This document shows, piece by piece, positions 1,563-50,378 of a stretch of DNA of 53,017 nt (position 1 is the first letter of the stretch; every line of letters starts with the position of its first letter). Under the pieces are notes generated by a model that did no database searches, was not told where the DNA came from, and was given only the letters and a program-made list of their open reading frames with translations. The translations under genes were made by a program, and so were the position numbers. The DNA is taken from assembly GCA_040755715.1 (NCBI GenBank), contig JBFLXN010000001.1:1-53017 (forward strand), in the 5' to 3' direction. The stretch comes from Candidatus Edwardsbacteria bacterium. GTDB taxonomy: Bacteria; Edwardsbacteria; AC1; JBFLXN01.

Positions 1563-1593
1563 CTTCTTATTACCTCCTCGTCGCTTCGCTCCA

Positions 1594-1720
1594 TTGCAAA
1601 ATGAAAATTGTAAAATGCAAATTGTAAAACTAAAAACCGTCTCCTTTCTTTCATTTTGTAATAAGCGATAAGGTATTCCTTATTTCATTTTGCATTTTGC
1701 ATTTTGCAATCTGCATTTTA
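1594..1720. repeat. operon-spacer hairpin, word AAATGCA/TTGTAAA
   Basis: Arm 1594-1631 is approximately the reverse complement of arm 1685-1720 (ATTGCAAAATG-type words). Lies between porB and the roadblock gene. Confidence 0.6.
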
Positions 1721-1726
1721 AAATTC

Positions 1727-3854: not shown

Positions 3855-4090
3855 CTGTAACCACAGATTTGACAGATTTTCCGCCAAAGGCGGATCTGCC
3901 CCAGGCATGAAACGGATTACATCAAATAAATATCAAGAATCAAAACCATTCATCCTCCTCCGTTCCGATGGCCATCGGGACGGAAGACAAGCAATCCAAA
4001 ATTTAAAAATTTAACTTTTCTTGCTCCTTTTTTTATTCTTGATTTTGGATTTACTTAATCCGTCTAATCCGTTTAATCCGTGGTTTCGTT
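3855..4090. repeat. composite spacer: CACAGAT / AATCCG word arms plus small palindromes
   Basis: 275-nt gap between porD and porA. AACGGATTAC...ATCAAGAATCAAAA faces TTCTTGATTTTGG...TAATCCGT. Inner palindromes at 3881-3893 (CCGCCAAAGGCGG) and 3959-3984 (TCCGTTCCGATGGCCATCGGGACGGA). Confidence 0.5.
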
Positions 4091-6135: not shown

Positions 6136-6149
6136 CAGTAATCAATTCA

Positions 6150-6319
6150 AAATGCAAATATCAAAAATCAAAATTACAAACCAAAATTCAAAATGAGCAT
6201 CTTAAAACGTCTGTCAGCAGAGTAGCCGTATAATTTTTGACGTTCAGTACACTAATAGTTTTTAAAATTTAAAAGTTTTAATATGTCATTTTGATATTTG
6301 ATATTTGATTTTTAATTTC
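6150..6319. repeat. operon-spacer hairpin, word ATATCAAA
   Basis: Arm 6150-6196 (AAATATCAAAAATCAAAAT...CAAAATGA) faces arm 6287-6319 (TCATTTTGATATTTGATATTTGATTTTT). Confidence 0.6.
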
Positions 6320-13486: not shown

Positions 13487-14031
13487 AGATTTGACCTTTG
13501 TTCCGAGGTAGGGGCGACCCGTTGGGTCGCCCCTACTGCCTCCAATTCTACCAATGCTTCGCCGGCATTTATCAGTTTTCCGACAACAGTGTTTACTTTT
13601 CTCACTACGCCTTTGAAAGGTGACTTCAATTCATTTTCCATCTTCATTGCCTCTACAATAACAACCGTCTGATTGTGCTCCACTGTTTCCCCTTCAGAGA
13701 CATTAATTTTTACCACTGTGCCAGGCATAGGAGAGGATACCATTGCTTCTCCCGGGTGCATGGTTGGGGCGACCCGAGGGGTCGCCCCTACCGTTTCTTT
13801 TTCACTAAAATAAAATTCTCTTCCATTCAAATAGACGAATTTCTTCCCTTCATTTTCTATCAAATATGCCACAAAACTTTTGTCTCCAAGAAGTATAGAA
13901 AGACAGTTAGACGATATATAACTGTAATCAACTTTTAACTTTTTGTCTTCAAAGTTGACCAGGTATTTGTTATCTTTACATTCTATAGAAATCTTATATT
14001 CCTTTTCATTACAGATAAATTCAAATTCCAT
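13483..14031 (-). CDS. biotin carboxyl carrier (BT-like N-domain plus biotinyl domain) carrying two in-frame REP insertions
   Basis: 182 aa. Has the biotinylation motif EAMKMENEL. The two REPs translate as VGATPRVAPT and VGATQRVAPT. The stop overlaps the buk ATG. Confidence 0.8.
   Translation of the reverse strand: MEFEFICNEKEYKISIECKDNKYLVNFEDKKLKVDYSYISSNCLSILLGDKSFVAYLIENEGKKFVYLNGREFYFSEKETVGATPRVAPTMHPGEAMVSSPMPGTVVKINVSEGETVEHNQTVVIVEAMKMENELKSPFKGVVRKVNTVVGKLINAGEALVELEAVGATQRVAPTSEQRSNL
13508..13536. repeat. REP palindrome (GTAG type) forming the C-terminal tail of the BCCP
   Basis: GTAGGGGCGACCCGTTGGGTCGCCCCTAC, 29 nt. Confidence 0.85.
13763..13791. repeat. REP palindrome in the BCCP inter-domain linker
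   Basis: GTTGGGGCGACCCGAGGGGTCGCCCCTAC, 29 nt, one arm slightly degenerate. Confidence 0.8.
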
Positions 14032-16520: not shown

Positions 16521-17095
16521 AGTATTTTGTCATAAAAATAAGGGTTGGATTGATTACAGCGATTAACTAAAAAGATTTTTGAAAAAATTATTTTCTTTTG
16601 AAGGAAATCTATAATTTTTACCTCTGTTCTTTTACGATTGCATTCCAAAATAGCGTATGAAGGTGGAAAGCCTTTCTTATCTTCCTTTTTTAGATGTCCC
16701 GGGTTCACCCATAAGACCCCTTCTTCCTCTTTAAGCTCTGGCTTGTGTGTATGGCCGTAGAGTATAACATCTACTTCTCTATTTTTTACGACTTCTTCTG
16801 GTTTAATATCCGAGGGGAAATCATTGGGGTGAGAAGTTGGAGAATGGGTGAGGAGAAAGCGCAAGCCTTCAAATTCCTTGATAACTCTATGCGGTAGGTT
16901 TGATTCAACATAGATAGGTTCATAGACACCGGGAATCTCAATCCATTCAACTGAAGGCTCTTTCAATCCCTCCAAATCGGTTATATCGTCTCCTAAATGA
17001 ATAAATATTTCAACACCTTCCTGATGAAATTTATCTATAACTTTTTTCAGATATTCAATATTACCGTGCGTATCACTAACTACACCAATCTTCAT
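16517..17095 (-). CDS. YfcE-like metallophosphoesterase
   Basis: 192 aa with MKIGVVSDTHGN, GD..D and GHTH motifs. Confidence 0.7.
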   Translation of the reverse strand: MKIGVVSDTHGNIEYLKKVIDKFHQEGVEIFIHLGDDITDLEGLKEPSVEWIEIPGVYEPIYVESNLPHRVIKEFEGLRFLLTHSPTSHPNDFPSDIKPEEVVKNREVDVILYGHTHKPELKEEEGVLWVNPGHLKKEDKKGFPPSYAILECNRKRTEVKIIDFLQKKIIFSKIFLVNRCNQSNPYFYDKIL

Positions 17096-17477
17096 ATTCT
17101 TTGTTTAGAATTCTCAGGTCTTTTATGGAATAATGTTTAGCATTGTAAGTAACCAGTATTAGATCATTGAGAATACAAGTAGCAGCTATTATTGCGTCAA
17201 CGAAATCAAAAATAATTCCCTTGGTTTTATATTTACGAATATATTCTCCAGTTAAATTGGCGACATTTCTATCTACCTTACATACTTTGAGATTGTTTAG
17301 TAGTAAATTCGTTGCTTCTTCCTCTCCTGCTTTTACACCCACTTGAACTTCTATAATTGAGACAGCAGAACAATAAGGTATCCCTTCTTGACTTAATTTC
17401 TCCACAAGTTCTATCGTTTCTTTTTTATTTCTCAGACACCAGATCAAGACATCTGAATCTAGGAGATATTTAGGCAT
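17076..17477 (-). CDS. vapC: PIN-domain toxin VapC
   Basis: 133 aa. N-terminal YLLDSDVLI, and a C-terminal ILVTYNAKHY PIN motif. Confidence 0.8.
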   Translation of the reverse strand: MPKYLLDSDVLIWCLRNKKETIELVEKLSQEGIPYCSAVSIIEVQVGVKAGEEEATNLLLNNLKVCKVDRNVANLTGEYIRKYKTKGIIFDFVDAIIAATCILNDLILVTYNAKHYSIKDLRILNKEYEDWCS

Positions 17478-17748
17478 TGAGCAATTTTTCTATTCTTTTG
17501 TTAGCTGAACTGCGAATTTTTTTTAGGTACCGGTTTAGGCCTCTTTGGTTCTTTAGCGTGGGATGATTTTTGTCACTCCAGCTTCCCTTTGTTCTATTTA
17601 GGGCTTGTAAGAATTTCATTCTTTCTAACTTTTCCTTTGTCGCCTCAACTACGAAACTACTTCTCTTTCCTTTACCCACTATTTTCTTTATTTCTTCAAG
17701 TAAATCTTCAGGAAAGAGGATATTAGTTCTTATACTATGTGCCACCAT
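17470..17748 (-). CDS. vapB: ribbon-helix-helix antitoxin (VapB-like)
   Basis: 92 aa. IRTNILFPEDLLEEIKKIV...RSSFVVEATKEKL resembles RHH. Overlaps vapC by 8 nt. Confidence 0.65.
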   Translation of the reverse strand: MVAHSIRTNILFPEDLLEEIKKIVGKGKRSSFVVEATKEKLERMKFLQALNRTKGSWSDKNHPTLKNQRGLNRYLKKIRSSANKRIEKLLNA

Positions 17749-20277: not shown

Positions 20278-20310
20278 GGTTACCTCCTATTGTTAAAAAG
20301 GCAAAGATTA

Positions 20311-20427
20311 AAATTGAGGTTAAGGTTTAGAGAAGGAAGTAAAAGTCAATGTGCTAGATGGAGAATTTTACGGATTAAACGGAGAAACACCAGATTTTTC
20401 TTAACCTTAACCTCAACCTTAACCTTA
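20311..20427. repeat. operon-spacer hairpin, word GGTTAAG
   Basis: ATTGAGGTTAAGGTT (left) faces AACCTTAACCTCAACCTTAACC (right), with a 14-nt perfect core. Confidence 0.65.
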
Positions 20428-20445
20428 TCTTTTTTCTAGCTGTAT

Positions 20446-22121: not shown

Positions 22122-22145
22122 AGTTTCCTCCCTTGTTAACAGTAG

Positions 22146-22195
22146 ACAGAAGGCAGAAAGCAGTAAGCAAGCTGCTTTCTGCTTTCTGCTTTCTG
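22146..22195. repeat. operon-spacer hairpin, word GCAGAAAG
   Basis: CAGAAGGCAGAAAGCAG, loop TAAGCAAG, then CTGCTTTCTGC(TTTCTGC)CTTCTG. The stem is essentially perfect, with one extra 7-nt word on the right arm. Confidence 0.8.
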
Positions 22196-22215
22196 CCTTC
22201 TGCTTTTTTCTCCTT

Positions 22216-27345: not shown

Positions 27346-28680
27346 CTACAATGTTGATAAATTTTGTTTCGTATAGTTCCTCAAAAGCCATTTCCATATC
27401 GGAACAAATTTTATTATTTTACTATTTACTTTTTCTTTATTCTCGTAGTCTCCTGTGATGACCAATCCTTCACTTAATTTGAACTCATTAAGTGCATTCA
27501 TCAATGCTTTTAATTCCCTTCTCTTGACTTCGTAATCCGCTATATCCCAAGAAATCTGTATCAATTTTGTTACCTTTAATCCATCCTTTATCACGAAATC
27601 CACTTCTTTGTTATTACTTTTCCAATAATAAATTTCTAGATTAGGATTAAGATTTTGTTCTTTCTTCAACTCTATGGCTACCAAATTTTCAATTAGCCTG
27701 CCCAAATTTTCACTAAATCTAAACCCCATTGAATTTGCAAGTCCTACATCTGTCGGATACACTTTTCTGGCTGATTTTTCCTGTTCTTTAACCGAGTATG
27801 AAAACCTTCTTATAAAAAATATTAGATTTGCTTCTTCTAAATATGATGAGAACTTTTCCACTGTAATAGTTGCCGTGTTTAGAAATTTACGGATAGAATT
27901 GAAGGTTATTGGTCTGGCCATATTGGTTAAATAAAATCTTACCAATGTCTTTAGAAGTTCACTTCTTTTTATTCTGTACCTTCTTTCAATATCTTTCGTT
28001 AAAATATCATCAAAATAACTTAAAAGCAAGATTTTTTTATTTTCACTCAAAGTGACTTCAGGAAATCCTCCCCATTCCATATATTCCCTTAACAATGCCT
28101 TTATTTCTATTTTCTTTGAGACAACATCTAATTGGTCCTTTAGAGTTATGTTTTTAAAAAACAAAAATTCACCGAAGCCCAATGGATAAATATAAACATC
28201 AAGGTGTCTACCTGTTAAAACAGTGGATATTTCACTGGCGAGTAACTTTGATGATGACCCCGAGATAATAATCTTTGCCTTTCCAAGTTCATGAGCAGTT
28301 CTCACCCACCGTTCCCAGTCAGGTACATTATGCACTTCATCTAAAAATATATAAGGTTTTCCTGAAGGGTTTAAAAACTCAAGGTATGTTTCATAAATTT
28401 CTTGTAAAAGTCCCGGATAAAATTCTGTAAATCGCTGGTCTTCAAAATTTATTATCAATGTGTTTTCCTGACCAAGGCCACGAGATATTAAATTTTTGGC
28501 AATTTGACGCATAAGATAAGATTTCCCTGACCGTCTTATCCCCACTATGACAAGGATTATATTAGATTTTAATAAATCTGAGCAAGTTTTTAGATATTCG
28601 CTTCTTTCTTTTCCTGTTTCTTGCTCTTTTTTCCAGAAGTTCCAATCATTTAGTATTTCTAAAACCAGATTTTTATCCAT
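27346..28680 (-). CDS. AAA+ ATPase with C-terminal DUF4143 (COG1373-like)
   Basis: 444 aa. Walker A GIRRSGKSYL, Walker B IFLDEVH, and a C-terminal EVDFVI segment. Confidence 0.7.
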   Translation of the reverse strand: MDKNLVLEILNDWNFWKKEQETGKERSEYLKTCSDLLKSNIILVIVGIRRSGKSYLMRQIAKNLISRGLGQENTLIINFEDQRFTEFYPGLLQEIYETYLEFLNPSGKPYIFLDEVHNVPDWERWVRTAHELGKAKIIISGSSSKLLASEISTVLTGRHLDVYIYPLGFGEFLFFKNITLKDQLDVVSKKIEIKALLREYMEWGGFPEVTLSENKKILLLSYFDDILTKDIERRYRIKRSELLKTLVRFYLTNMARPITFNSIRKFLNTATITVEKFSSYLEEANLIFFIRRFSYSVKEQEKSARKVYPTDVGLANSMGFRFSENLGRLIENLVAIELKKEQNLNPNLEIYYWKSNNKEVDFVIKDGLKVTKLIQISWDIADYEVKRRELKALMNALNEFKLSEGLVITGDYENKEKVNSKIIKFVPIWKWLLRNYTKQNLSTL

Positions 28681-29067
28681 TTGTTTGCTCTATTAAACAT
28701 ATTTTTAGAATTTTGTTTAGTGAGGACATTGAATTTGACGCCCCTACACTTGCCGATGGAACCACAGATTTCGCGGATTTCCGCCTATGGCGGAAATCCG
28801 TGATTAAAAAATTATTGAGTAGAGTAGGAGATGGTATTACTACCATCCTCCCCTGCTTCAAACCGAACATCCAGATTTCCCGTATTCGGCTTCCCGAAGG
28901 AATTGACAGGTCGCCTGCCCGTCTTTAGCCACCTTTGGTTCACTTTCGTTTCGGGCTGGGAGTTTGTCTTGTTCCCTCCAGATTTCGCCTCACGGCGAAC
29001 ACCCTGAACTTGACTACAGAGCCTCCCTAAGTCAAAGAGTCTGACCCGACTTTAACGGGCAAGCCAG

Positions 29068-29204: not shown

Positions 29205-30629
29205 TTACGCTTCAAGCGTCCAGCGTTTAGCACTTTTTATAACATTTCCCTTCTCATCAAGGTAAATAGTCTTAATTTTATTCTCCTGTTCATCGTATTC
29301 AAAACGCACCGTGGCAAAATGCAAATCCTTGCGATTCTTCAGTTGTCCATTTTTGTCGTAATAACTCTCCTCAATCTTTTTTCCCTGCTCGTCATATTTG
29401 TAACGAACACTGGCAGCTCCCAAATATTTGTGTTCTTTTAACTTCTCATCCTTGCTGTAATAACTCACTTCCGCCATATTTCCTTCTTCATTGTATCTGT
29501 AACGCAGAATGGCGAAGCCAAAATCGTTACGCTCTTTCAATTGCCCATCAGCGCCGTAATAACTTTCCTCAATCTTATTTCTTTGCTCATCATATTTCCA
29601 GCGATAGATGGCGAAGCCCTCTATGTCTTCTATCAATTTCTCACTGGCACTATAATAGCTTTCCTCAGTCATATTTCCTTGGTCATTGTATTTGTAATGG
29701 ACAATGGGAATGAAGGATATGAATTTCCTATTCTTTCCGTAGTAAGCTATCTCAATTCTATTCCCCTTACTATCATATTTAGAACATACAGCGGCGACCC
29801 TCCAATCTTCACGCTCTTTTAGTTGGCCATCGGTTCCGTAATAACTTTCTTCAGTCACGTTTCCTTGCTCGTCATATTTCCAGCGCCAAATAGCAATACC
29901 AGCCTTGTTTTCTTTCAATTTCTCTTTGGCATCGTAGAGGCTTTCTTCAATCAGATTCTTCTGGTCATCGTATTTATAACGCTCGATGGCAATGCCTGAG
30001 ATCAATTTTGGACCCTTGCCGTAGAGAGCTATATCAATCATGTTTTCTTGTTCATCATATTTCCAGCGTATTTCGTGTCGCCCATATTTGTCCACAATTC
30101 GCTCTCCATTCTTATTAAGCCTAATAGACTTGATTCGGTTACCATTTTCGTCTACAGTCCAGACATATTGAGCAACACCCATATCGTCCTCTGTCAGTTC
30201 ACCATTTCTATCATAGTTGAGCAATGCAATGGGAACACTCTCTTTATTCAGTTTAAGCCCCTGGCAATAAACCCCAAAGCCAGAATTTGTCATCGGATTA
30301 CCCTTCACATCAAAGTAGTGTCTTTTTTCGTAACCCTCGGGATATTCTATCTTGATTTGAGCCACTTCAAAGATAGGGTCGTAACTCAGTTTACCCCGTT
30401 TCAAGTATTCTACTCTAACCAATCTGCCGTTTTCGTTACATACAAGATGATAGCAATCAACCTTGTTGGCGACCTCTTCTGTTATGGGATAGCGACCGAT
30501 AATCTGCCATTTACCGTCCCAAGCAGGCGATGTGATTCGCCGATAATAGATGTCTGTCTCTTTGCCCCATCCGGCAGCAGCCATTAGACTATACAATGCA
30601 AATATCAAGCAGACCGCAATTCTTTTCAT
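29205..30629 (-). CDS. secreted YD/RHS-like repeat protein
   Basis: Preferred start is MKRIAVCLIFALYSLMAAAG (signal peptide). About 10 units of ~31 aa of the form W(R/K)YDEQGN.IEESYY..DG.LKE resemble YD repeats. No toxin tip recognised. Confidence 0.6.
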   Translation of the reverse strand: MKRIAVCLIFALYSLMAAAGWGKETDIYYRRITSPAWDGKWQIIGRYPITEEVANKVDCYHLVCNENGRLVRVEYLKRGKLSYDPIFEVAQIKIEYPEGYEKRHYFDVKGNPMTNSGFGVYCQGLKLNKESVPIALLNYDRNGELTEDDMGVAQYVWTVDENGNRIKSIRLNKNGERIVDKYGRHEIRWKYDEQENMIDIALYGKGPKLISGIAIERYKYDDQKNLIEESLYDAKEKLKENKAGIAIWRWKYDEQGNVTEESYYGTDGQLKEREDWRVAAVCSKYDSKGNRIEIAYYGKNRKFISFIPIVHYKYNDQGNMTEESYYSASEKLIEDIEGFAIYRWKYDEQRNKIEESYYGADGQLKERNDFGFAILRYRYNEEGNMAEVSYYSKDEKLKEHKYLGAASVRYKYDEQGKKIEESYYDKNGQLKNRKDLHFATVRFEYDEQENKIKTIYLDEKGNVIKSAKRWTLEA

Positions 30630-30778
30630 AACTCCACTCTTGTTTATTCTTTCACATTTTTTCGTCTCTAAAGAGGCGGAGCCCCAATTATGCATAGCAC
30701 GACACATGGGGAGGGCCTTTGATGGCGTTTGTGCTATTCTCCCTATCCCGCATCAGCGGGACCTCCGCCTCATATTTT

Positions 30779-32110
30779 TTAAACGTAGTCATTTATTGGC
30801 CCATACAGCCAGTAGAAGCCATTTGTCAGAACTGCATTGACATCATTCGCTGAATTAGCGATGCCATCGTCAACGAGTTTTTTGGCTATCTCTCCTGTCT
30901 TGAGAAGATATTCTCTGGCAAGCCTTGCTCCAAGTCCCCTTGCCGTCTTAAGATTAGCAAAATAACTTGAAAGTGCCTCCTCCTTCTTTGGCTCAGCGAT
31001 TAGTTTTTTCCAGGGATTGAATCCGCTTGGAAGATTTCCAATCTTTTTATCCAAATCTTCTTTTAACTTCCCTTCAATAGGAATGTATTCTCCTTTTTCC
31101 AGACTATAAACAGCCACTGGTCTGTTTTTTTCGTATTTCAAAAATCCATCCTTCTGCGAACCGTCCGGTCTCTGGCCTCCCAGAATCTTTCTTTCAACCA
31201 TCACATCAATTATTTCACTCTTGAGAGAACCATCTTTGAGATGTTTTTTCATAACTCTCAGGATGCACTGAAAGACATCTATTCCGACATAATCAATCAA
31301 TTGGAAGATACCCATTGGTCTGATGAGAAAATCCTGGCTCACCCGATTCATCACATAGACTGCTCCAGCAAAAGAATGCTTTTTCTGTAATCTTTTCACC
31401 TGTTTGATAGCATAAAGTCCATCCCTGATGAAATGTCCATTTCCGATAAATCCAGCTACATCGTTTGCCGAAACCAGGGTCTTTCTTAGCCTTTTACCAA
31501 GTTCAGTAGCAATATCTTTAAGTTCCTGAGGGGTCGTTTTGCCTGTGATTACCTCCACCAACCTTTGCACCACGGGCGGATTGTAGAAATGATATCCAAT
31601 TATCTTTCCCGAAAGTCCTGCTTTCTCATCAAGAAAACCAATGGGCACAGAAGAGGTGTTGGTGAAGAAAAATATCTCTTCACTGCACATATTTTTCAAT
31701 TCTTTGAATACTTTAATCTTCAGTTTCTCATCTTCAATAATTGCCTCAAAAATCATCTTTGAATTCTTTGCCAAATTCAAGTCCGTACCGAATCTTACCA
31801 CAGAAAATGCGTCTCTTGCAAAGGCATTCACTATTTCTTCATTTTCCACAAGATTTTTTTTATCTCTATATATATCTCTTAAGGAAACAATTCCTTTTTC
31901 TGCGGTCTTAGTAAGCTCACTTCTAAGATAGTTTTGGAGACCATCAAGTCCTTTCTCACTAATATCAATCAGATTCAGTCTATAAATCTTGTCTTTGTTC
32001 TTTAGTTTTAGCCCTGCTATTTCCTGGGCTAAAAGAACGGCAATACCGCTGCCCATCTTCCCAGCCGCTCCAATTACGGAGACATTTTCTAATCTTTCAT
32101 CAAGTGTCAT
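30779..32110 (-). CDS. 3-hydroxyacyl-CoA dehydrogenase family protein (long form)
   Basis: 443 aa. Has the VIGAAGKMGSGIA Rossmann motif and the GYHFYNPP 3HCDH motif. Confidence 0.8.
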   Translation of the reverse strand: MTLDERLENVSVIGAAGKMGSGIAVLLAQEIAGLKLKNKDKIYRLNLIDISEKGLDGLQNYLRSELTKTAEKGIVSLRDIYRDKKNLVENEEIVNAFARDAFSVVRFGTDLNLAKNSKMIFEAIIEDEKLKIKVFKELKNMCSEEIFFFTNTSSVPIGFLDEKAGLSGKIIGYHFYNPPVVQRLVEVITGKTTPQELKDIATELGKRLRKTLVSANDVAGFIGNGHFIRDGLYAIKQVKRLQKKHSFAGAVYVMNRVSQDFLIRPMGIFQLIDYVGIDVFQCILRVMKKHLKDGSLKSEIIDVMVERKILGGQRPDGSQKDGFLKYEKNRPVAVYSLEKGEYIPIEGKLKEDLDKKIGNLPSGFNPWKKLIAEPKKEEALSSYFANLKTARGLGARLAREYLLKTGEIAKKLVDDGIANSANDVNAVLTNGFYWLYGPINDYV

Positions 32111-32550
32111 TATGAACCTCCTTGTATATTTTGTAATCGTCGCCTTTTCTTTCTGTGGTTAATGATTGCTCCCTTTACGAAATCACGAATTTCCCCGGCC
32201 ATTTGCTGAGCCATTTCTGCTTCGTCTCTACTGATTTCTGTTGGCCAATGAACCGGATAACGGGTATCTACATAAAAATCTGTAAGAAATTCGCAGGCTT
32301 TCTTAAGTTTAGAAAACGATGATTGGTGAGCCTGACAAATTTTGAGCAATTCCGGGAGATCGTGAATCCTCCTGAAAGATAACTCGCAAGCAACGATATA
32401 AGTTTTCAGATACTTCTCAGCCGCTTGTTGAAAGTGAAAGCAAATCTGAGTGAAGAAAGTATTTGAATGATTGGCAAGATTTAGAGAAGCAAAGCAAAAA
32501 TCTTCCTCTGCTTTATTCAACCATTCTCTGATAATTTTCTCATCTACCAT
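32110..32550 (-). CDS. HEPN domain protein (HEPN/MNT module 1)
   Basis: 146 aa. AEEDF..A, then FHFQQAAEKYLK, then RIHDL, giving an Rx4-6H-like HEPN pattern. Overlaps the MNT gene. Its stop abuts the hbd-like start. Confidence 0.75.
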   Translation of the reverse strand: MVDEKIIREWLNKAEEDFCFASLNLANHSNTFFTQICFHFQQAAEKYLKTYIVACELSFRRIHDLPELLKICQAHQSSFSKLKKACEFLTDFYVDTRYPVHWPTEISRDEAEMAQQMAGEIRDFVKGAIINHRKKRRRLQNIQGGS

Positions 32551-32872
32551 ATACTACTTTTCCTTCTTTTAAGATAGCCAGAACGAATGGATCTCCCAGA
32601 CGGATTCGCTCTTCAAATTCTTCTGGTCTATAGATGAGAAAATCTGTTGGCAGATTTTTTTTTATCAATCTCCTCAATTCTCTCGCCCTGTCTCTACCAA
32701 TAGTCGGAGTTTCTCTCTTGATAATTAGGAAATCAACATCACTGTCTTCGCTAAGATTACCCTGTGCCGCAGAACCAAAGAGGATTATTCTTTCAGGCTT
32801 GTATTTCGTTACAATTTCTTTGATTATCCTTTTGATTTCCCTCATCAAATTTTGCTTTTGTAATACGGACAT
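32540..32872 (-). CDS. minimal nucleotidyltransferase (MNT) antitoxin-type protein
   Basis: 110 aa. ILFGSAAQGNLSEDSDVDFLI is the GS...D.D motif. Confidence 0.8.
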   Translation of the reverse strand: MSVLQKQNLMREIKRIIKEIVTKYKPERIILFGSAAQGNLSEDSDVDFLIIKRETPTIGRDRARELRRLIKKNLPTDFLIYRPEEFEERIRLGDPFVLAILKEGKVVYGR

Positions 32873-32934: not shown

Positions 32935-33705
32935 CTACCAGTTCGGCTTTCTCTTTTCCAAAAACGCCTTCATTCCTTCTTTTGCCTCATCAGTGGAAAA
33001 AAGAATACTGAACGCTTCCATCTCATAAGAATTTGCCGTGGTAAGATTAGCGTCAATGCCACGATTGACAACCGTCTTGGCAATATGAACTGCAGTAGGC
33101 CCAACTTCTATAATCTTCTTGGCCATGTTTTTTGCCTCTTCCATTAAACTCTCCGGTGCTACAACTCTATTCACCAGACCAATCCGAAACGCCTCTTGGG
33201 CCTCAATCATCTCCCCGGTAAAGATTAACTCTTTTGCTCTACCAATTCCGACCAGACGAGCCAACCGTTGGGTTCCTGCATGTCCAGGAATTAAACCAAG
33301 TTTTACCTCAGGCTGACCTAATTTTGCCTTTTCCGAGGCAATCCTTATGTCACAAGCCATCGCTATTTCACAACCAGAGCCTAAAGCATAACCATTCACT
33401 GCCGCAATTACCGGTTTTTCCATATTTTCAATAAACGATAACACCCGTTGTCCAATCTGGCTATATTCTCTCGCCTTGAGCGAATCCATCTCGGCAAGTT
33501 TAGAAATATCCGAACCGGAAACAAAAGATTTGCCTTCTCCGGTAAGAATTACCACTTTAATATTAGCATCATTATTTAACTGATGCATTGCTTCTTCCAA
33601 TTCCAGAATGGTCTCTGGGTTTATTGCATTCAGCACCTGCGGTCTATTGAATTTCACCACCGCAATTCCTTCTTCCCTTTCAATCAAAAAATTTTGAAAT
33701 GCCAT
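32935..33705 (-). CDS. short-chain enoyl-CoA hydratase (crotonase)
   Basis: 256 aa. VILTGEGKSFVSGSDI and AAVNGYALGSGCEIAMACD are canonical crotonase motifs. Confidence 0.85.
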   Translation of the reverse strand: MAFQNFLIEREEGIAVVKFNRPQVLNAINPETILELEEAMHQLNNDANIKVVILTGEGKSFVSGSDISKLAEMDSLKAREYSQIGQRVLSFIENMEKPVIAAVNGYALGSGCEIAMACDIRIASEKAKLGQPEVKLGLIPGHAGTQRLARLVGIGRAKELIFTGEMIEAQEAFRIGLVNRVVAPESLMEEAKNMAKKIIEVGPTAVHIAKTVVNRGIDANLTTANSYEMEAFSILFSTDEAKEGMKAFLEKRKPNW

Positions 33706-33765
33706 TGATTCCTCCCATTATTACATTGTTTGTTAAAACATTGTGAAGCAATCGTCAAACGATAG

Positions 33766-34134
33766 TCAAGCAGTTGTGAAACGACCGATGGATTTAATGT
33801 AATTGTTGAGTTTAACTTTCAGATTTATATAATCCTTAATAAACTTATCATATTCTTCTCCCGTGATATACTTACGCTTCAAGCTAAATAACATAAAGTG
33901 CTTCGTTTCTGTAAGAGAACCGCGTGCCTGACGACAAAACTGCTGGTTTTCTTTATAGTGAAACCGCCCATACCCTTCGGCAATATTTGCCCCTATTGAT
34001 GTACCCGCTCGTCTCAACTGGGAAACAACATTATATTTTTCTTCCTCAGGAAATCTCGAAGTAATATCATAAATCCGGTCTGCCAATTCTATTGATAATT
34101 TATACACCTCTAAGTCATCAAAATCCTTAATCAT
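33766..34134 (-). CDS. four-helix-bundle protein (23S rRNA intervening-sequence protein family)
   Basis: 122 aa. YKLSIELADRIY..T..FP.EEKY.VVSQLRRAGTSIGANIAEGYGR is the family signature. Confidence 0.8.
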   Translation of the reverse strand: MIKDFDDLEVYKLSIELADRIYDITSRFPEEEKYNVVSQLRRAGTSIGANIAEGYGRFHYKENQQFCRQARGSLTETKHFMLFSLKRKYITGEEYDKFIKDYINLKVKLNNYIKSIGRFTTA

Positions 34135-34194
34135 TACTCCTCCTATTGCTTGACCATCGCTTGACTATTGTTTGACTACTCCCCACTCATCGCC

Positions 34195-35496
34195 TTACCT
34201 TTTTAATAACCCCTTTTCGTACGCTTCTTTTTCTAATCTTTCCCGATGGTCTGGATGGGCAATGTCAATTAAGGATTTTGTCCGTTCCCGCAAGTTCTTT
34301 CCGTGAAGATACGCAATCCCATATTCGGTCACCACATAGTGAACATCACCACGGCTTGTTACCACTCCGGCGCCTTCTTTTAAAGACGAAACGATGCGTG
34401 AAATCTTTCCATCTTTAGCTGAAGCAGGAAGTGCAATAATTGGTTTACCTCCTTTTGAACTAGCGGCACCACGAATAAAATCTACCTGACCACCGATACC
34501 AGAATAAATCCTATGTCCGATAGAATCAGCACAAACCTGGCCAGTAAGGTCTACTTCAATGGCTGAATTAATCGCAACTATCTTGTCATTCTGAGCGACG
34601 ATAAATGGATTATTAGTATAATCGCAAGGATGAAGTTCAAATAGAGGATTGTTGTGGATGAACTGATACAACCTGCGTGAACCAAAAACAAAAGTAGCGA
34701 CAACTTTGCCAGGATGAAGTGTCTTTTGACTCCCGGTAATTACACCTGCTTCAATCGCCTCCATAATACCATCAGAAACCATTTCCGTGTGAATTCCTAA
34801 ATCTTTCTTATTTTTTAAATTGCTAATCACGGCGTCAGGAATACCACCTATTCCCAGCTGTAAGGTAGAGCCATCTTCAATCAGAGAAGTGACATAATTT
34901 CCGATCTTCTTTTCCACCTCGGTCGGCTCCTTCCGTGGGAGTTCAGGCAATTCTTCTGAAACTTCCACAATTTGGGCAGCTCGGGAAATATGAACGAAGC
35001 AGTCGCCCAGGGTTCTCGGCATCTTATCATTTATCTGGACAATCAAAGTCTTAGCGGCTTCTACGGCGGACTTAGAAGCCAAAGTTTCTACCCCCAAACT
35101 TAAGAATCCATGCTGGTCAGGTGTTGAGGTATGAATTAAGGCGACATCAATGGGCAGAGAGCCTGAACGCAAAAGTAGAGGAATTTGATAGAGAAAGATG
35201 GGAATATAGTCTGCTCTTCCTTCGTTAACTGCTTCGCGGTCTGCCGGTCCAACAAAGAGAGAATTGTGGCGAAAATGTCCTTCCATTTCAGGACGGGCGG
35301 TAGGGTCATCTCCCCACAGGAGAACATGGATGATTTCAACATTTTTTATTGCGTCTTTTCTTTGAGCCAGAGCTTTTAGTAAGGGATACGGTGTAGCAGC
35401 GTTGGCGCTAATATATACACGTTGACCACTCTTTACCACAGATACGGCAGATTCTAAGGAAAATATCTTTTTCTTATATTCTTCAATCCAGCTCAT
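34195..35496 (-). CDS. acetyl-CoA hydrolase/transferase family (4-hydroxybutyrate or butyryl-CoA:acetate CoA-transferase type)
   Basis: 433 aa. SGQRVYISANAATP, LQLGIGGIPDAV and GIGGQVDF motifs. Confidence 0.8.
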   Translation of the reverse strand: MSWIEEYKKKIFSLESAVSVVKSGQRVYISANAATPYPLLKALAQRKDAIKNVEIIHVLLWGDDPTARPEMEGHFRHNSLFVGPADREAVNEGRADYIPIFLYQIPLLLRSGSLPIDVALIHTSTPDQHGFLSLGVETLASKSAVEAAKTLIVQINDKMPRTLGDCFVHISRAAQIVEVSEELPELPRKEPTEVEKKIGNYVTSLIEDGSTLQLGIGGIPDAVISNLKNKKDLGIHTEMVSDGIMEAIEAGVITGSQKTLHPGKVVATFVFGSRRLYQFIHNNPLFELHPCDYTNNPFIVAQNDKIVAINSAIEVDLTGQVCADSIGHRIYSGIGGQVDFIRGAASSKGGKPIIALPASAKDGKISRIVSSLKEGAGVVTSRGDVHYVVTEYGIAYLHGKNLRERTKSLIDIAHPDHRERLEKEAYEKGLLKR

Positions 35497-35527
35497 TTTT
35501 TTCTCCTTGAATACAAGATAATCAGAA

Positions 35528-35625
35528 GGAATCGTAGGAAACGCAGGAACCGAAGGAAACGTATGAAACGTCAGAACCCCTGTTTCTCTCCCACACGATT
35601 CCTCCGTTTCCTACGTCTCCTACGG
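35528..35625. repeat. operon-spacer hairpin, word GGAAACG
   Basis: CGTAGGAAACGCAGGAACCG faces CGATTCCTCCGTTTCCTACG, about 18 of 20 complementary. Confidence 0.7.
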
Positions 35626-35631
35626 CTTTAA

Positions 35632-40860: not shown

Positions 40861-40995
40861 AGTAGTGAGTAGTAAGTAGAAAGTATTGAGTTAATTGAGT
40901 TTGTTGAGTTTTTGGGTTCATTGGGTTTTAACAACCCGATAAACTCAATAAACTGAGTAAACCCAATAAACCTATTTCTCCTCGTTACTATTTTA
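40861..40995. repeat. operon-spacer hairpin, words ATTGAGT / AGTAGTGAGT
   Basis: TATTGAGTTAATTGAGTTTGTTGAGTTTTTGGGTTCATTGGGTT faces AACCCGATAAACTCAATAAACTGAGTAAACCCAATAAACC. Outer arms are AGTAGTGAGTAGTAAG / CTCGTTACTAT. Confidence 0.65.
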
Positions 40996-42554: not shown

Positions 42555-42920
42555 TTATTCTTTCTGGGCGAGGATAATCCCGTTTTCGTTAATCCTTTTG
42601 AAAAATGAATTTTCCCCTGCCTTTACAACTTCTTCAATGGTAAAAGGGAAAACATCAACAGGTAAACCGACAGAAAGAAAATAAAGCAGATATTGGGGTA
42701 TTCGGTCCATTCTTCTTCTCTTATCGTTGGCAAGAATAATTAATAAATCAATATCACTATGAGGCGAATAGTTGCTATTTGATAGAGAACCGAAAAGGAC
42801 AATCTTTAAAACATTTTTATCTTGGGAAATCAACTCTCGGGCAATCTTTGACAACTTAGTCAAAACCTCTTCTCTATTTAGGGAGTAAACTTTCACAGTA
42901 TTTGATAATTTCGCTTGCAT
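42555..42920 (-). CDS. minimal nucleotidyltransferase (HEPN/MNT module 2)
   Basis: 121 aa. VLFGSLSNSNYSPHSDIDLLI is the GS...D.D motif. Confidence 0.75.
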   Translation of the reverse strand: MQAKLSNTVKVYSLNREEVLTKLSKIARELISQDKNVLKIVLFGSLSNSNYSPHSDIDLLIILANDKRRRMDRIPQYLLYFLSVGLPVDVFPFTIEEVVKAGENSFFKRINENGIILAQKE

Positions 42921-43260
42921 TTTTTATCGCCTCCTCGGCATCGTTTTTAAAAAAATATTCTTTTGGTGTACCAGTTTCAAAACTATTTGCATACCTAGTG
43001 GGAATATAAAATCTATCCAATCTAGCGCCCTTTTCTATCAAATCTTCAGGCACATCTGTGGCGAGATTTTTTAAGAGACTACTTACCGAATGTCCCCAGG
43101 CTTCCATATTACGAAATAAATATAGGGCTTTTACTGCTTTTTCTGCCGATTGTTGCGCACTAAAGCATGCCCACTCATAAAACTTTTCTTCCGTATCCTT
43201 CTGTGCATGTGCTAAATCTCTTTTTGCTTGTTCTAACCAATCAACCCACCGGCTAGCCAT
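42874..43260 (-). CDS. HEPN domain protein (module 2)
   Basis: 128 aa. AKRDL..A, then FSAQQSAEKAVKALY, then GHS. The gene order is opposite to module 1. Confidence 0.75.
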   Translation of the reverse strand: MASRWVDWLEQAKRDLAHAQKDTEEKFYEWACFSAQQSAEKAVKALYLFRNMEAWGHSVSSLLKNLATDVPEDLIEKGARLDRFYIPTRYANSFETGTPKEYFFKNDAEEAIKNASEIIKYCESLLPK

Positions 43261-44354: not shown

Positions 44355-44744
44355 TTAAATGGCAACCTGCCTTACTCTATACTTTGTTTCTGATATTATC
44401 ACCAAAGACCTGTTGTGTTCTATGTTTTTGAAACCTGGACTTCCTATGAACTCTCTCAGAATTTCAATTGCATGTTCCACTGTAGGGGGCTTGATTCTCA
44501 AGACCCATACACCGAAACTGCCCTTGCCTGAGCGATAATACAACTCTCCAAAATCCAAATCAAAGGTCAGAATGACAAACCCTTTCCCCTTGGCAATATC
44601 AACCACTTTTCTATCCGGCAGACCCACGGAAAACTCTGTAGTTCTTTTGGCATCAAATCCAACTTCCTTCAAAAAACTAATAATTTTAGGACTAATGTTT
44701 TCATTGCCTAAAATCTTGAGTTCAGACAAGGCCCACCTCTTCAT
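44355..44744 (-). CDS. DUF5615-like (Mut7-C/PIN-like) putative toxin
   Basis: 129 aa. Lies downstream of and overlaps a DUF433 gene. ILTFDLDFGEL is typical of this family as I recall it. Confidence 0.55.
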   Translation of the reverse strand: MKRWALSELKILGNENISPKIISFLKEVGFDAKRTTEFSVGLPDRKVVDIAKGKGFVILTFDLDFGELYYRSGKGSFGVWVLRIKPPTVEHAIEILREFIGSPGFKNIEHNRSLVIISETKYRVRQVAI

Positions 44745-47646: not shown

Positions 47647-47678
47647 TTTTAATTTCCCTTCAAAGGCTTGCTAAAAAA

Positions 47679-47737
47679 AGTTCATAGTTCATGGTTCGTA
47701 GTTCATACCATCAACTATAAACTATGAACTATCAACT
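47679..47737. repeat. operon-spacer hairpin, word GTTCATA
   Basis: Arm 47679-47706 matches the reverse complement of 47710-47737 at 23 of 28 positions, with a 3-nt loop. The right arm overlaps the stop of the B12-subunit gene. Confidence 0.75.
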
Positions 47738-48133
47738 GTGTTTCTTCACTGTTTTCTGGATAAAGTTGACTATTTCCGTAGTGGGTGTACCTGGGCCAAA
47801 AAGTTGTTTCACCCCCATTTTTTTTAGCGCCCTTATGTCTTCCTCAGGAATTATCCCCCCCCCTGTAAGTGTAATTCCAGTTGCCTTCTTTTCTTTTAAG
47901 AGTTTAAGGATTTTAGGAAAGACTGTCATATGGGCACCAGAAAGGATGCTTACTCCTATTACCTCCACATCTTCTTGAATTGCTGTTTCTACAATCATTT
48001 CTGGTGTTTGATGCAGACCGGTATAAATAACTTCCATTCCTGCATCTCTCAGGGCCCTGGCTACGACTTTTGCTCCCCGGTCATGCCCATCAAGTCCAGG
48101 TTTAGCGATTAAAACACGAATCTTTCTCTCCAT
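47732..48133 (-). CDS. B12-binding small subunit of an acyl-CoA mutase
   Basis: 133 aa. [20 protein letters not shown] carries the DxHxxG base-off/His-on motif, and GGG.IP is present. Confidence 0.85.
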
Positions 48134-48159
48134 AATGCCTCCGATAGACGCTTCACGCC

Positions 48160-48555
48160 TTACGCTTCACGCTTCACGCTCGAGGCTTGACGTCTCTGGC
48201 GTTTAACACTAAGCGCATTTCTAAATTTTCTAGTTTTTGCTTCAATTTTATCACAAAATTCACAGATATCTTTAACTACAATGTTTTCAAGAAATCCCAG
48301 CCTCTCACATACTTTCATACAGGCAATTATTTCAACAAGTGACTTAAGAGAAATCCCAAGAAATCTTCTGAATTCGGCATCGCTGTCCGAAGCTCTTCCT
48401 TCTGCGATATTTAAAGATACAGAGACAGCGACTCTTTTGAGTTGACTTGACAAGCCAAATTTTTCATCTTCTGGGAGTTTTGCTGTAATTTTGTATATCT
48501 TTTCCACAAGATCCAATGACAATTGCCATATCTCTAATTTTTCAAAAGGATACAT
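48160..48555 (-). CDS. four-helix-bundle protein (23S rRNA intervening-sequence protein family)
   Basis: 131 aa. [44 protein letters not shown]. The C-terminal tail SSVKREA is encoded by ACGCTTC words. Confidence 0.8.
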
Positions 48556-48647
48556 TCAATCCTCCTTTTAGGCACGTTTTACGCCTTACGCTCGGTGCCT
48601 GGCGTTCAGCGTCAAGCGTCAGGCATTTAGCGTTTAGCGTCCAGCAT

Positions 48648-50297
48648 TCAAAAGACCGGTGGTTCTTTATATTCGCCAAAGACTTCTCTCAAGGCGTCAC
48701 AAATCTCACCAATGGTGGTATAACAACGAACGCATTCTAAGAATCTTGGCATTAGATTATCTTTGCTTTTGGCGGCTTTTTTTAATTGTTCCAGAGTCTT
48801 CTTCACTTTCAAGTTGTCTCTCTCCCGACGCACTTTATTTAAGTTTTTGATTTGTTCTTGCTCCACCCCAGGACCAATCTTCAAGAGTTCAATTTCCGGT
48901 TGTATTTCATCTGCGAATTCATTCACTCCCACCACAATTTTTTCTTTTTTCTCAAGTTCTTTTTGATAGCGGTAAGCACTGTCGGCAATTTCCTTCTGGA
49001 AGAATCCTTTCTCAATCGCCTTAATTACTCCACCTAAGATTTCAATCTTTTCAAAATATTTTTCTGCTTCTTCTACCATCCTGTTAGTTAATACTTCTAC
49101 ATAATATGAACCAGCAAGTGGGTCAATGGTATTGGCGACTCCAGTTTCGTAAGCAATAACCTGCTGGGTTCGCAAGGCAATTTTGGCTGCCTTTTCTGTT
49201 GGTAAAGCATAAGTTTCATCCATTGAATTAGTGTGCAGACTTTGTGTTCCACCCAAAACTGCTGATAAGGCTTCAAACGCGGTGCGCACAATATTATTTT
49301 CCGGCTGTTGAGCGGTAAGACTGCAACCCGCAGTTTGGGTATGAAATCTCAGAAGACAAGACCGTGGGTCTTTGGCTTTGTACTTTTCTTTCATCCTTTT
49401 AGCCCAGATGCGTCTGGCCGCTCTATATTTGGCTATTTCTTCAAAAAAATCTAAATGAGCATTAAAGAAGAAAGAAAGGCGTGGGGCAAATGTATCTACC
49501 TCCATACCAGCTCTTACCCCCGCCTCCACATAGGCAAATCCATTGGCTAAAGTAAAAGCCAGTTCCTGAACTGCTGTTGAACCGGCTTCACGAATGTGGT
49601 AACCACTGATGCTGATGGTATTCCATTTCGGCACATAATCGGCACTGAATTTCATAATATCAGTAATGATGCGCATTGAAGGTTCGGGAGGAAAAATCCA
49701 GGATTTCTGGGCTTGATACTCTTTTAATATATCATTTTGAATTGTGCCAGTGAGAAGCTTTGAGTCAACGCTCTGTTTTTCTCCCACCGCTATATACATC
49801 GCCAAAAGAATTCCTGCTGGGGCATTAATCGTCATAGAAGTAGAAATCTTATCCAATGGAATACCGTGGAATATTGTCTCCATATCCTTCAGAGAGTCAA
49901 CTGCTACTCCGCATCTTCCCACTTCACCTTTGGAAAGCGGATGGTCAGAATCTCTCCCATAAAGTGTAGGAAAATGAAAGGCGACCGAAAGTCCTGTCTG
50001 ACCGTGTTTGAGAAGAAATTTATATCTGGCATTTGTATCTTTGGGTGTACCGAATCCTGAAAATTGACGCATTGTCCACAACCGTCCACGATACATATTG
50101 TAATAGACACCACGAGTATAAGGATATTCTCCTGGAAAACCTATGTCTTTCAAATAATCTACGCCCACGACATCTTCTGGTGTATAAAGCACTCCTACTG
50201 GCTCTCCTGAAATAGTCGTAAATTTCCACGGTCTCTGTTTACCCTCTTCGGAGAGTTTTCTCTCCCATTCTTTTCTAAGTTTGTTTATCTCATCCAT
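48648..50297 (-). CDS. acyl-CoA mutase large subunit, ICM-type (Phe/Gln) with an atypical AFHFPT motif
   Basis: Preferred start is [11 protein letters not shown], with GAGGT upstream. TMRQFSGF and [15 protein letters not shown] carry the Phe80/Gln198-type substitutions. [15 protein letters not shown] replaces the usual AFD(L/M)PT..GYDSD. Confidence 0.8.
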
Positions 50298-50378
50298 ATT
50301 TTTTACCTCGCTAATAAATTTAAAAATCACATATTGCCATGTAAAATAAATAAGGGTTGTATTTGCCCAGACTGCGAA

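Follow-up and report, generated by a model that had tools for sequence, protein, structure and literature searches.

Results

An IVS-family gene enclosed by inverted word arrays

We analysed a 53,017-nt stretch of DNA from a Candidatus Edwardsbacteria bacterium (contig JBFLXN010000001.1, positions 1 to 53,017; "the window"). In it, the spacer between a CoA-transferase gene and a crotonase gene holds a small open reading frame (ORF) on the same strand as both host genes (Table 1). The ORF belongs to PF05635, the family named for the intervening sequences (IVSs) of 23S rRNA. The original prediction, made from the sequence letters, held that this ORF at 33766-34134 is bracketed by inverted repeats and that the stem-loop-ORF layout of an rRNA IVS is thereby found in an mRNA operon. 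We find that two inverted arms, a ribosome-binding site (RBS) and the PF05635 ORF make up one 434-nt unit at 33743-34176 (minus strand), hereafter copy 1.

The two repeats lie where they had been placed, after small shifts in coordinates. CGTCAAACGATAGTCAAGC at 33753-33771 spans the stop codon of the ORF (TGA, 33766-33768, minus strand), while GCTTGACTATTGTTTGAC at 34159-34176 lies 25 nt 5′ of the ATG at 34134. The earlier count of 17 complementary positions out of 18 was reproduced, and the extra TTGAC/GTCAA words reported around the repeats turned out to be parts of longer arms. A repeat search gives arms of 30 nt with 83% complementarity and 374 nt between them, a loop that the ORF occupies almost exactly; three direct repeats spaced 11 nt apart make up the right arm. 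The 53-kb window contains three instances of TTGAC-N6-TTGAC, each within these arms, where 0.08 would be expected.

Since the arms are repeats, several pairing registers exist. A shift by one word yields a continuous 19-bp helix on the sense RNA that includes two G-U pairs (Table 1). This helix is found in both the minimum free energy and the centroid folds of a 501-nt transcript, and its pairing probability in the partition function is ~1.0. The arm-arm duplex has an energy of -42.3 kcal/mol, compared with -24.6 ± 3.6 kcal/mol for dinucleotide shuffles, and 0 of 200 shuffles were as low, as would be expected if the flanks fold better than shuffled controls. A chance origin of the inverted repeat is excluded. 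The fold of the whole region has a z-score of only -1.6, which is uninformative because the ORF dominates it. Like an IVS, copy 1 thus has terminal inverted repeats that form a long enclosing stem.

No intrinsic terminator (stem plus U-run) was found on the minus strand within 33600-34300, and the copy-1 region contains no convincing promoter and no Rfam match. A weak sigma-70-like match (TTGACT-18-CACAAT, 9/12) is present in the 3′ arm, facing the crotonase gene. Rfam returned no rRNA in the window, and copy 1 lies between two protein-coding genes, so it does not occupy an rRNA helix as an IVS does.

The nearest genome that we found in a collection of 185,579 species is a WOR-3 metagenome-assembled genome (MAG; locus L002), whose CoA-transferase is 80% identical. 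In L002, the CoA-transferase gene is followed by a crotonase gene across a plain 55-nt spacer, without an ORF and without a hairpin. The window spacer outside the copy-1 arms comprises 18 + 37 = 55 nt, equal to the L002 spacer. Although the two spacers are too diverged to align, the match in length would fit a clean insertion of 434 nt.

The product of copy 1

The ORF matches the IVS-protein models strongly, as had been anticipated: PF05635 with E = 1e-34 and 119.4 bits (cut-off 33.8) and TIGR02436 with 110 bits (cut-off 24). The R-x3-S-x3-N-x2-E polar motif reported for helix 2 of the family (PMC3936711) is present as R42, S46, N50 and E53, all of them invariant or nearly so across a 44-sequence alignment. 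The protein sequence matches the solved pentameric structures Xcc0516 (2GSC) and BT_0352 (2RLD). An AlphaFold2 model has a predicted local distance difference test (pLDDT) score of 95, with helices at residues 9-25, 30-55, 60-86 and 92-115. Its sole low-confidence part is residues 116-122, the C-terminal end that is encoded by the 3′ arm.

Foldseek aligned this model to Xcc0516 (2gsc) with template modelling (TM) scores of 0.86-0.96 and to BT_0352 (2rld) with 0.77-0.87. It also aligned the model, with scores of 0.69-0.86, to the Avd protein of a phage (bAvd, 4DWL) and to the Avd chains of the ribonucleoprotein of a diversity-generating retroelement (DGR), at a sequence identity to bAvd of only ~9-15%. 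Homology between PF05635 and Avd has been stated before (PMC10053308), and some homologs of the copy-1 protein match PF22296 (bAvd). The product of copy 1 is probably an Avd-like protein that forms a pentamer of four-helix bundles. In comparisons with four close homologs, dN/dS is ~0.1 and synonymous sites are saturated (proportion of synonymous differences, pS, 0.63-0.82). The protein is therefore functional and not a relic.

A second cassette in the window

A further PF05635 gene, copy 2 (ORF 48160-48555), is located between the gene for the catalytic subunit of methylmalonyl-CoA mutase (48648-50330) and that for its B12-binding subunit (47732-48133). Its ORF scores 100.4 bits against TIGR02436. 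The arms are 38 nt long, and their duplex has an energy of -65.8 kcal/mol compared with -41.4 ± 4.8 kcal/mol for shuffles.

In the copy-2 subfamily, the GCGT 3′ array is translated into a repetitive C-terminal tail rich in K and R (window 48160-48200; loci L185 and L186, ~2850-2911). These tails end in ..SVKREA or ..ASSVKR, and the stop codon that follows is supplied by the array.

Flanking inverted arrays across the family

A metagenome scan provided 80 loci with relatives, in which 73 PF05635 ORFs had enough flank to score. Each ORF was scored by the strongest ungapped inverted repeat that its start-side flank forms with its stop-side flank, relative to shuffles, and z > 4 was counted as positive. 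By this measure inverted repeats flank 46 of the 73 PF05635 ORFs. Among 182 other ORFs from the same contigs, 4 were positive (Fisher p = 8e-27), of which at least two abut a cassette. Together with copy 2, these loci bear out the expectation that other members of the family would also be flanked by inverted arms. On viral contigs from IMG/VR, 12 of 14 scored PF05635 copies had z > 0.8, and 10 of these had z > 5.

Nearly all arms consist of tandem words. Of the 46 loci, 29 have a period of 7 nt, 10 a period of 8 nt and 7 a period of 9-11 nt. Arms have a median length of 31 nt, and an array contains a median of ~3 words (range ~2-10).

PF05635 genes are also strongly co-oriented with their surroundings. 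Single adjacent pairs are co-directional at a background rate of 67%, while both neighbours run in the direction of the PF05635 gene in 33 of 38 cases. The same holds for both window copies, for four annotated contexts of close homologs and, among copy-2 relatives, for L185 and L186, with L189 as the exception. None of ~100 PF05635 copies sampled adjoined rRNA sequence, and most are co-oriented between protein-coding genes. Universal rRNA motifs were present in none of the sampled PF05635 loci, the sole match being a CoA-transferase locus (L011). The rRNA location that gave the family its name is therefore the exception, and the survey suggests that the hairpin-wrapped layout is its usual form. 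In the literature that we searched, the earliest IVS papers aside, we found no description of tandem-word arms, of their polarity or of their covariation with the protein.

Word cores follow the protein subfamily

Within the window, the words differ from array to array (GTCAA, ACGC and eight further types). The words are therefore not a host trait. Between loci, words are more alike where the proteins are more alike (Mantel r = 0.21, p = 0.0005).

Close homologs of copy 1 are 69-76% identical over aligned codons and lie between unrelated genes; one is from a Planctomycetota MAG. In five independent loci of this subfamily, the upstream flanks contain 18 GTCAW and 0 WTGAC words and the downstream flanks 20 WTGAC and 3 GTCAW, where chance would give ~0.2 of each per flank. 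The spacing of these words is mostly 10-11 nt or multiples thereof. For copy 2, three relatives with context (62-76% identical) add three further loci in two new gene contexts, L185 and L186 sharing one of the glutamate-synthase type. In these relatives we counted 19 ACGC and 6 GCGT upstream and 19 GCGT and 3 ACGC downstream, as heptamers. Overall, the copy-2 subfamily keeps its ACGC/GCGT heptamers at four loci in three distinct gene contexts. Two or more GTNAW words are present in half of all 5′ arms, compared with 1 of 46 3′ arms.

Since the word cores persist although synonymous sites are saturated, the cores are under selection. Pairing alone demands no particular sequence, which implies a trans factor that reads the words; the simplest candidate would be the cassette's own protein.

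Three loci provide further observations on the words. L133 and L128 encode proteins that are 95% identical and have identical 3′ arms, while the 5′ arm of L128 differs at five positions, all uncompensated and all toward a more regular repeat. Arm evolution thus seems to involve both selection for pairing and homogenisation inside an array. In L189 (positions 1-2866 of a WOR-3 MAG), a copy-2 relative with ACGC words lies downstream of cas1-cas2, and a short ORF-less hairpin of similar words lies just upstream of this relative.

PF05635 genes in L111, L119-like, L120 and L138 are flanked by repeats of TTGGTCA (or TGGTTCAT). We take TTGGTCA to be STRR2, a heptamer of the cyanobacterial short tandemly repeated repetitive (STRR) sequences, and some STRRs may be arms of such cassettes.

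A nuclease-like gene in the same packaging

In a Cloacimonadota MAG (L003, 18383-18960), a word hairpin encloses a gene of another family, PDDEXK_3 (GxxExxY, PF13366), with a crotonase-like gene on one side and a biotin carboxylase gene on the other. In Kuenenia-like and other genomes, relatives likewise belong to gene clusters and run in the direction of their neighbours, and TTAGCCACGAAT...ATTCGTGGCTAA is the common terminus of their arms at unrelated loci. This shared terminus looks like a true terminal inverted repeat. The presence of a PD-(D/E)XK gene in such arms means that the packaging is not unique to PF05635. Besides L003, GxxExxY genes within inverted repeats in operon spacers were seen in L175, L180 and L182 (~3001-3384) and in L056 (16547-17008). 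On viral contigs we found no GxxExxY gene.

Hairpins without an ORF

Eight further spacers between co-directional genes of the window are filled by tandem-word hairpins that contain no ORF (Table 1); shuffled windows give none. Word hairpins reach a density of 13 per 100 kb in the window. In 1.3 Mb from diverse genomes, an unbiased set of 74 loci, the density is 0.8 per 100 kb and 5 loci have such hairpins. Two of these 5 (L003 and L056) also contain a PF05635 or GxxExxY ORF, compared with 0 of the other 69.

The original prediction had linked these hairpins to IVS-like elements, as possibly empty or decayed cassettes. The proposed link rests on architecture, polarity, location and co-occurrence, and sequence gives it no support. 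Searches of the eight loops for ORF remnants with PF05635 and PDDEXK_3 hidden Markov models gave only E > 0.3, and ORF-less and PF05635 arms have words in common in 37 arm pairs, against 40 ± 7 for shuffles, so that only composition and polarity are shared. The ORF-less hairpins may be decayed, non-autonomous or independent elements.

Word hairpins may not be confined to spacers. At 13478-15097 of L055 (Chloroflexota, Ca. Leptovillus), hairpins of ATTGCGG/CCGCAAT heptamers lie inside a continuous 1288-aa frame of a purL/purQ-like gene, where they translate as peptide repeats of the IRNPQSA type. These are either genuine in-frame insertions or gene calls fused across hairpins.

Polarity of the arms

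The two arms of a hairpin are not equivalent in composition. On the sense strand, G exceeds C in the 5′ arm at 39 of 45 loci (396 G vs 113 C), and the 3′ arm is reversed; the ORF-less hairpins of the window follow the same rule in 7 of 8 cases. We see three possible reasons for this polarity, which goes together with symmetric mismatch types and strand stabilities. It could avoid exposing C-rich RNA, on which Rho might load, before the partner arm has been transcribed; it could keep the Shine-Dalgarno sequence unpaired; or it could reflect a preference of the protein for words rich in G, A and U.

Table 1. Coordinates of the two PF05635 cassettes, the copy-1 host genes and the ORF-less hairpins in the window
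Feature	Position	Strand	Remarks
Copy-1 5′ arm on sense RNA	34147..34176	-	GTCAAACAATAGTCAAGCGATGGTCAAGCA; three GTCAA words, 11-nt period; last 19 nt (34147-34165) form the core helix
Copy-1 ORF RBS, GGAGGAG	34137..34143	-	In loop directly after 5′ arm; 4 nt before ATG
Copy-1 PF05635/TIGR02436 four-helix-bundle ORF, 122 aa	33766..34134	-	Last two codons and stop within 3′ arm
Copy-1 3′ arm on sense RNA	33743..33772	-	TGCTTGACTATCGTTTGACGATTGCTTCAC; TTGAC/TTCAC words, 11-nt period; 33754-33772 pairs with 34147-34165
Upstream host gene, acetyl-CoA hydrolase/transferase family (4-hydroxybutyrate CoA-transferase-like)	34195..35496	-	Stop 18 nt before copy-1 5′ arm
Downstream host gene, enoyl-CoA hydratase (crotonase)	32935..33705	-	Start codon 37 nt after copy-1 3′ arm
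Crotonase RBS, GGGAGGA	33710..33716	-	Outside stem, intact
Copy-2 5′ arm	48602..48639	-	ACGC heptamers, CGCTAAACGCTAAATGCCTGACGCTTGACGCTGAACGC
Copy-2 PF05635/TIGR02436 ORF, 131 aa	48160..48555	-	C-terminal tail encoded by 3′ word array
Copy-2 3′ arm	48142..48179	-	GCGT heptamers; overlaps ORF end
ORF-less word hairpin, intercistronic spacer	1593..1724	-	7-nt words AAAATGC
ORF-less word hairpin, intercistronic spacer	3907..4068	-	Words ACGGATT
ORF-less word hairpin, intercistronic spacer	6144..6318	-	Words ATATCAA
ORF-less word hairpin, intercistronic spacer	20295..20435	-	Words AAGGTT(A/G)
ORF-less word hairpin, intercistronic spacer	22140..22202	-	Words GCAGAAA, 3-nt loop
ORF-less word hairpin, alanine dehydrogenase/CoA-transferase spacer (next one upstream)	35520..35628	-	Words GTAGGA(A/G)AC
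ORF-less word hairpin, intercistronic spacer	40884..40968	-	Words TTGAGTTTA
ORF-less word hairpin	47673..47743	-	Words AGTTCAT; + strand right arm enters 3′ end of B12-binding subunit gene (47732-48133)

Other genes and repeats of the window

Within ~3 kb of copy 1, the ORFs encode the CoA-transferase, an alanine dehydrogenase, a methionine gamma-lyase-like protein, the crotonase, MNT and HEPN proteins, and a 3-hydroxyacyl-CoA dehydrogenase. The MNT nucleotidyltransferase (32540-32872) and HEPN (32110-32550) genes form a pair of toxin-antitoxin type on the minus strand. The pair (32110-32872) belongs to the same operon, where the crotonase and 3-hydroxyacyl-CoA dehydrogenase genes flank it, and has no word arms. 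In L002 the crotonase gene is followed by no such pair; the next ORFs there have the opposite orientation.

Nearly all genes of the 53-kb window are on the minus strand. Further small genes of addiction type, also on the minus strand and co-directional in the gene array, lie at 42555-43260, 17076-17748, 178-832 and 44355-44744. These four loci are, in this order, another MNT/HEPN pair, a PIN gene and a TumE toxin gene, each of the two preceded by a small ORF, and a DUF5615 gene.

At 28819-28999 (minus strand), the Rfam group II intron models RF00029 (42.8 bits) and RF02001 (36.8 bits) match, and a reverse-transcriptase ORF is absent. Nothing else in the window matches Rfam. Next to this fragment are a 444-aa ORF for an AAA_14/DUF4143 ATPase (27346-28680) and an RHS-repeat protein gene (29205-30707). 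A self-palindromic GC-rich sequence (GGTAGGGGCGACCC..GGGTCGCCCCTACC) is present in two copies, 226 nt apart, at 13507-13536 and 13763-13792. The pair apparently lies inside or at the end of a 182-aa ORF (13483-14031) and is unlike the AT-rich word hairpins.

Discussion

The idea at the centre of the original prediction, an IVS-type stem-loop-ORF unit living in an mRNA operon, holds at copy 1: its size, its stem and the placement of the ORF in the loop match the IVS of Coxiella, and the unit is absent from L002. The family-wide pattern extends that proposal. We consider it fairly probable that 33743-34176 is a promoter-less selfish cassette of IVS type, composed of arms, RBS and ORF, which was inserted sense-wise into the spacer of an acyl-CoA operon.

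Such a cassette would be transcribed solely as part of the host operon. Its arms would zip the ~375-nt loop shut into a double-stranded RNA stem of two or more helical turns, which RNase III may then cut, by analogy with homologous 23S rRNA IVSs, to release a monocistronic PF05635 mRNA. Both halves of the operon would stay functional after the cut because each keeps its own stop codon or RBS outside the stem. The tandem words would let the long-range pairing tolerate shifts in register, and the word cores (GTCAW in copy 1) could serve as recognition sites for the trans factor, most economically the protein encoded by the cassette itself.

A number of observations weigh against this proposal. 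Cleavage of the copy-1 stem by RNase III is an argument by analogy. About one third of the sampled family members have no detectable ungapped flanking repeat, and the two window cassettes show little excess of G over C in the 5′ arm, copy 1 almost none. Across loci, the duplex energies of sense and antisense strands are equal, and arm mismatches comprise 77 G-U and 87 A-C, without an excess of G-U on the sense strand. No target-site duplication is evident at copy 1, and no direct repeat abuts its arms. The flanking protein of L002 is only 80% identical, and from L002 alone an insertion in the window is indistinguishable from a loss in L002. An exact-protein look-up of the crotonase returned the source contig only, and thus no strain variant with an empty site. 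The number of words, with a median of ~3 per array, does not support a footprint of a pentamer.

The symmetry of mismatches and energies has a further consequence. We had considered a G-U excess as a sign of selection at the RNA level and rejected it for lack of a signal, so covariation supports no RNA-level function. Rather than by selection on a single strand of RNA, complementarity looks to be kept symmetrically or at the level of DNA. This symmetry would suit a mobile element that acts at the DNA level, in which the arms are terminal inverted repeats or arrays of binding sites, as at the ends of Tn7 and Mu, that are read by a trans recombinase or transposase, and the RNA stem is a by-product. 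Such an origin is a possibility that we hold to be doubtful, and it is not mutually exclusive with an IVS-type cassette. The common terminus TTAGCCACGAAT...ATTCGTGGCTAA of GxxExxY cassettes at unrelated loci is in line with it, as is the occurrence of proteins 69-81% identical in different phyla and gene contexts, which implies horizontal spread. Mobility of IVSs has in fact been proposed, by Ralph and McClelland (cited in PMC4990558). However, there is no transposase in or near the copy-1 unit. Within this one 53-kb window, the marks of a miniature inverted-repeat transposable element (MITE) or an insertion sequence are lacking: copy 1 has neither a target duplication nor a transposase, and the arms of the two window copies are unrelated. 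Arm sequences also vary widely between subfamilies, and the strong co-orientation with the operon, together with an arm polarity fixed by transcription, points to constraints at the level of expression or RNA.

Alternatively, the hairpins may have come first, as intercistronic RNA elements of the host for processing, stability or insulation that arose locally and whose loops were entered later by PF05635 and GxxExxY ORFs. The eight ORF-less hairpins of the window have the same tandem-word build, polarity and type of spacer. Word hairpins are rare elsewhere, PF05635 and GxxExxY ORFs of the unbiased set occur only where there is a hairpin, and a second family, PDDEXK_3, occupies the same type of loop. 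We nevertheless regard this order of events as unlikely. The words co-vary with the protein subfamily, and the GTCAW or ACGC core recurs at unrelated sites in different hosts. The window has no empty hairpin of the GTCAW type, the L002 spacer has no hairpin, and the words that ORF-less arms have in common with PF05635 arms are no more numerous than in shuffles. Because of the covariation between words and subfamily, the earlier alternative that the ORF is cargo of a generic hairpin element fits less well than arms and ORF as one unit.

Ordinary regulation or coincidence is very improbable. A terminator or attenuator would require a stem with a U-run, of which the minus strand has none, and there is neither an Rfam match nor room for chance. 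The weak sigma-70-like match toward the crotonase gene could make TTGAC a -35 box of a crotonase promoter, but the words of other subfamilies are unrelated to TTGACA, so the idea fails there. Least probable of all is that copy 1 encodes the Avd accessory protein of a DGR, a reading that the likeness to bAvd and to DGR Avd chains and the PF22296 matches would suggest but that is effectively refuted at this locus by its metabolic and HEPN/MNT neighbours, the low identity to bAvd, the lack of a reverse-transcriptase domain in any window ORF scanned with Pfam, and a repeat search that found no template/variable repeat pair or long direct repeat around the ORF.

Taken with the preferred interpretation of copy 1 as an IVS-type cassette, the results allow a broader scheme, which we offer tentatively. 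PF05635 and GxxExxY genes may be the cargo-encoding forms of widespread, undescribed operon cassettes whose ends are inverted arrays of 5-7-nt words read by their own protein, an Avd-like pentamer or a small nuclease. The rRNA IVSs would then be rare rRNA-resident members, and the ORF-less hairpins of some phyla would be non-autonomous relatives that shape the cutting and expression of polycistronic mRNAs.

Since 1993, it has been asked what the S23p/IVS protein does and what kind of element an rRNA intervening sequence is. The survey reframes the family: the rRNA site is the exception, the tandem-word hairpin is the general feature, and word cores are conserved within each subfamily despite saturated synonymous sites. 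This conservation leads to the hypothesis of a protein that binds the words of its own cassette and a stem that is cut by RNase III. Tandem-word arms also provide a simple sequence signature for finding such cassettes. They bear in addition on reports of PF05635 genes between cas genes such as cmr3/cmr2 (PMC3936711), which have been read as an association with CRISPR-Cas (PMC3936711, PMC10910872). Insertion into operons in general would explain this and similar associations, and the copy-2 relative by cas1-cas2 in L189 may be a case in point, simply reflecting operon insertion. For annotation, some caution is in order, as tandem-word hairpins in spacers are real features that may be read through as protein, as in the copy-2 tail and L055.

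Comparison with known systems

Several known systems resemble the cassettes in part. Tn7 and Mu ends, like the arms, contain a short site that is multiple and direct within each end and inverted between ends, and integron cassettes likewise carry promoter-less cargo that relies on outside transcription. In contrast to these, no transposase or integrase accompanies PF05635 cassettes, their sites are only 5-7 nt with a spacing of 7-11 nt, and an integron cassette has attC at just one of its ends. In heterocystous cyanobacteria, STRRs are also tandem heptamers in intergenic regions of operons; to our knowledge, they have been treated as repeats and not as inverted arrays that pair around a gene.

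IVSs without an ORF and the hairpins of repetitive extragenic palindromic (REP) sequences, REPINs and MITEs are, similarly, short hairpins in transcribed spacers or rRNA helices, with ORF-less and ORF-bearing forms coexisting. Within one genome, the copies of a REP, REPIN or MITE have a single conserved sequence in common, and they require a RAYT protein or a transposase. In the window, by contrast, each hairpin has its own word, and nothing is common beyond composition.

The Avd protein of the Bordetella phage BPP-1 DGR has the same four-helix bundle, as the TM scores given above show. As part of the DGR ribonucleoprotein, pentameric Avd contacts RNA, so nucleic-acid binding is a reasonable expectation for the PF05635 family. 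Unlike Avd, copy 1 (~10% identical) is without a reverse transcriptase or template/variable repeats, and the gene stands alone in operon spacers.

The closest counterpart is the 23S rRNA IVS of Leptospira and Coxiella burnetii, which encodes the PF05635 protein S23p in the latter. The Coxiella IVS is 428-444 nt long and has a 28-bp terminal stem that RNase III cuts in the middle, with the S23p ORF in the loop (PMC4990558); PF05635 ORFs are also present in several 16S and 23S rRNA insertion sites of the candidate phyla radiation (CPR; PMC11270868). Copy 1, at 434 nt, agrees with the IVS in length, in a terminal stem of ~20-30 bp (19-30 bp in copy 1), and in an ORF with its start signals in the loop, oriented sense-wise in the host transcript. 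It differs in that its host is the spacer of an mRNA operon and not an rRNA helix, in arms that are tandem-word arrays with subfamily-specific cores, and in that RNase III cleavage, demonstrated for IVSs, is presumed for copy 1. The Coxiella ORF is decaying, whereas the copy-1 ORF is under purifying selection.

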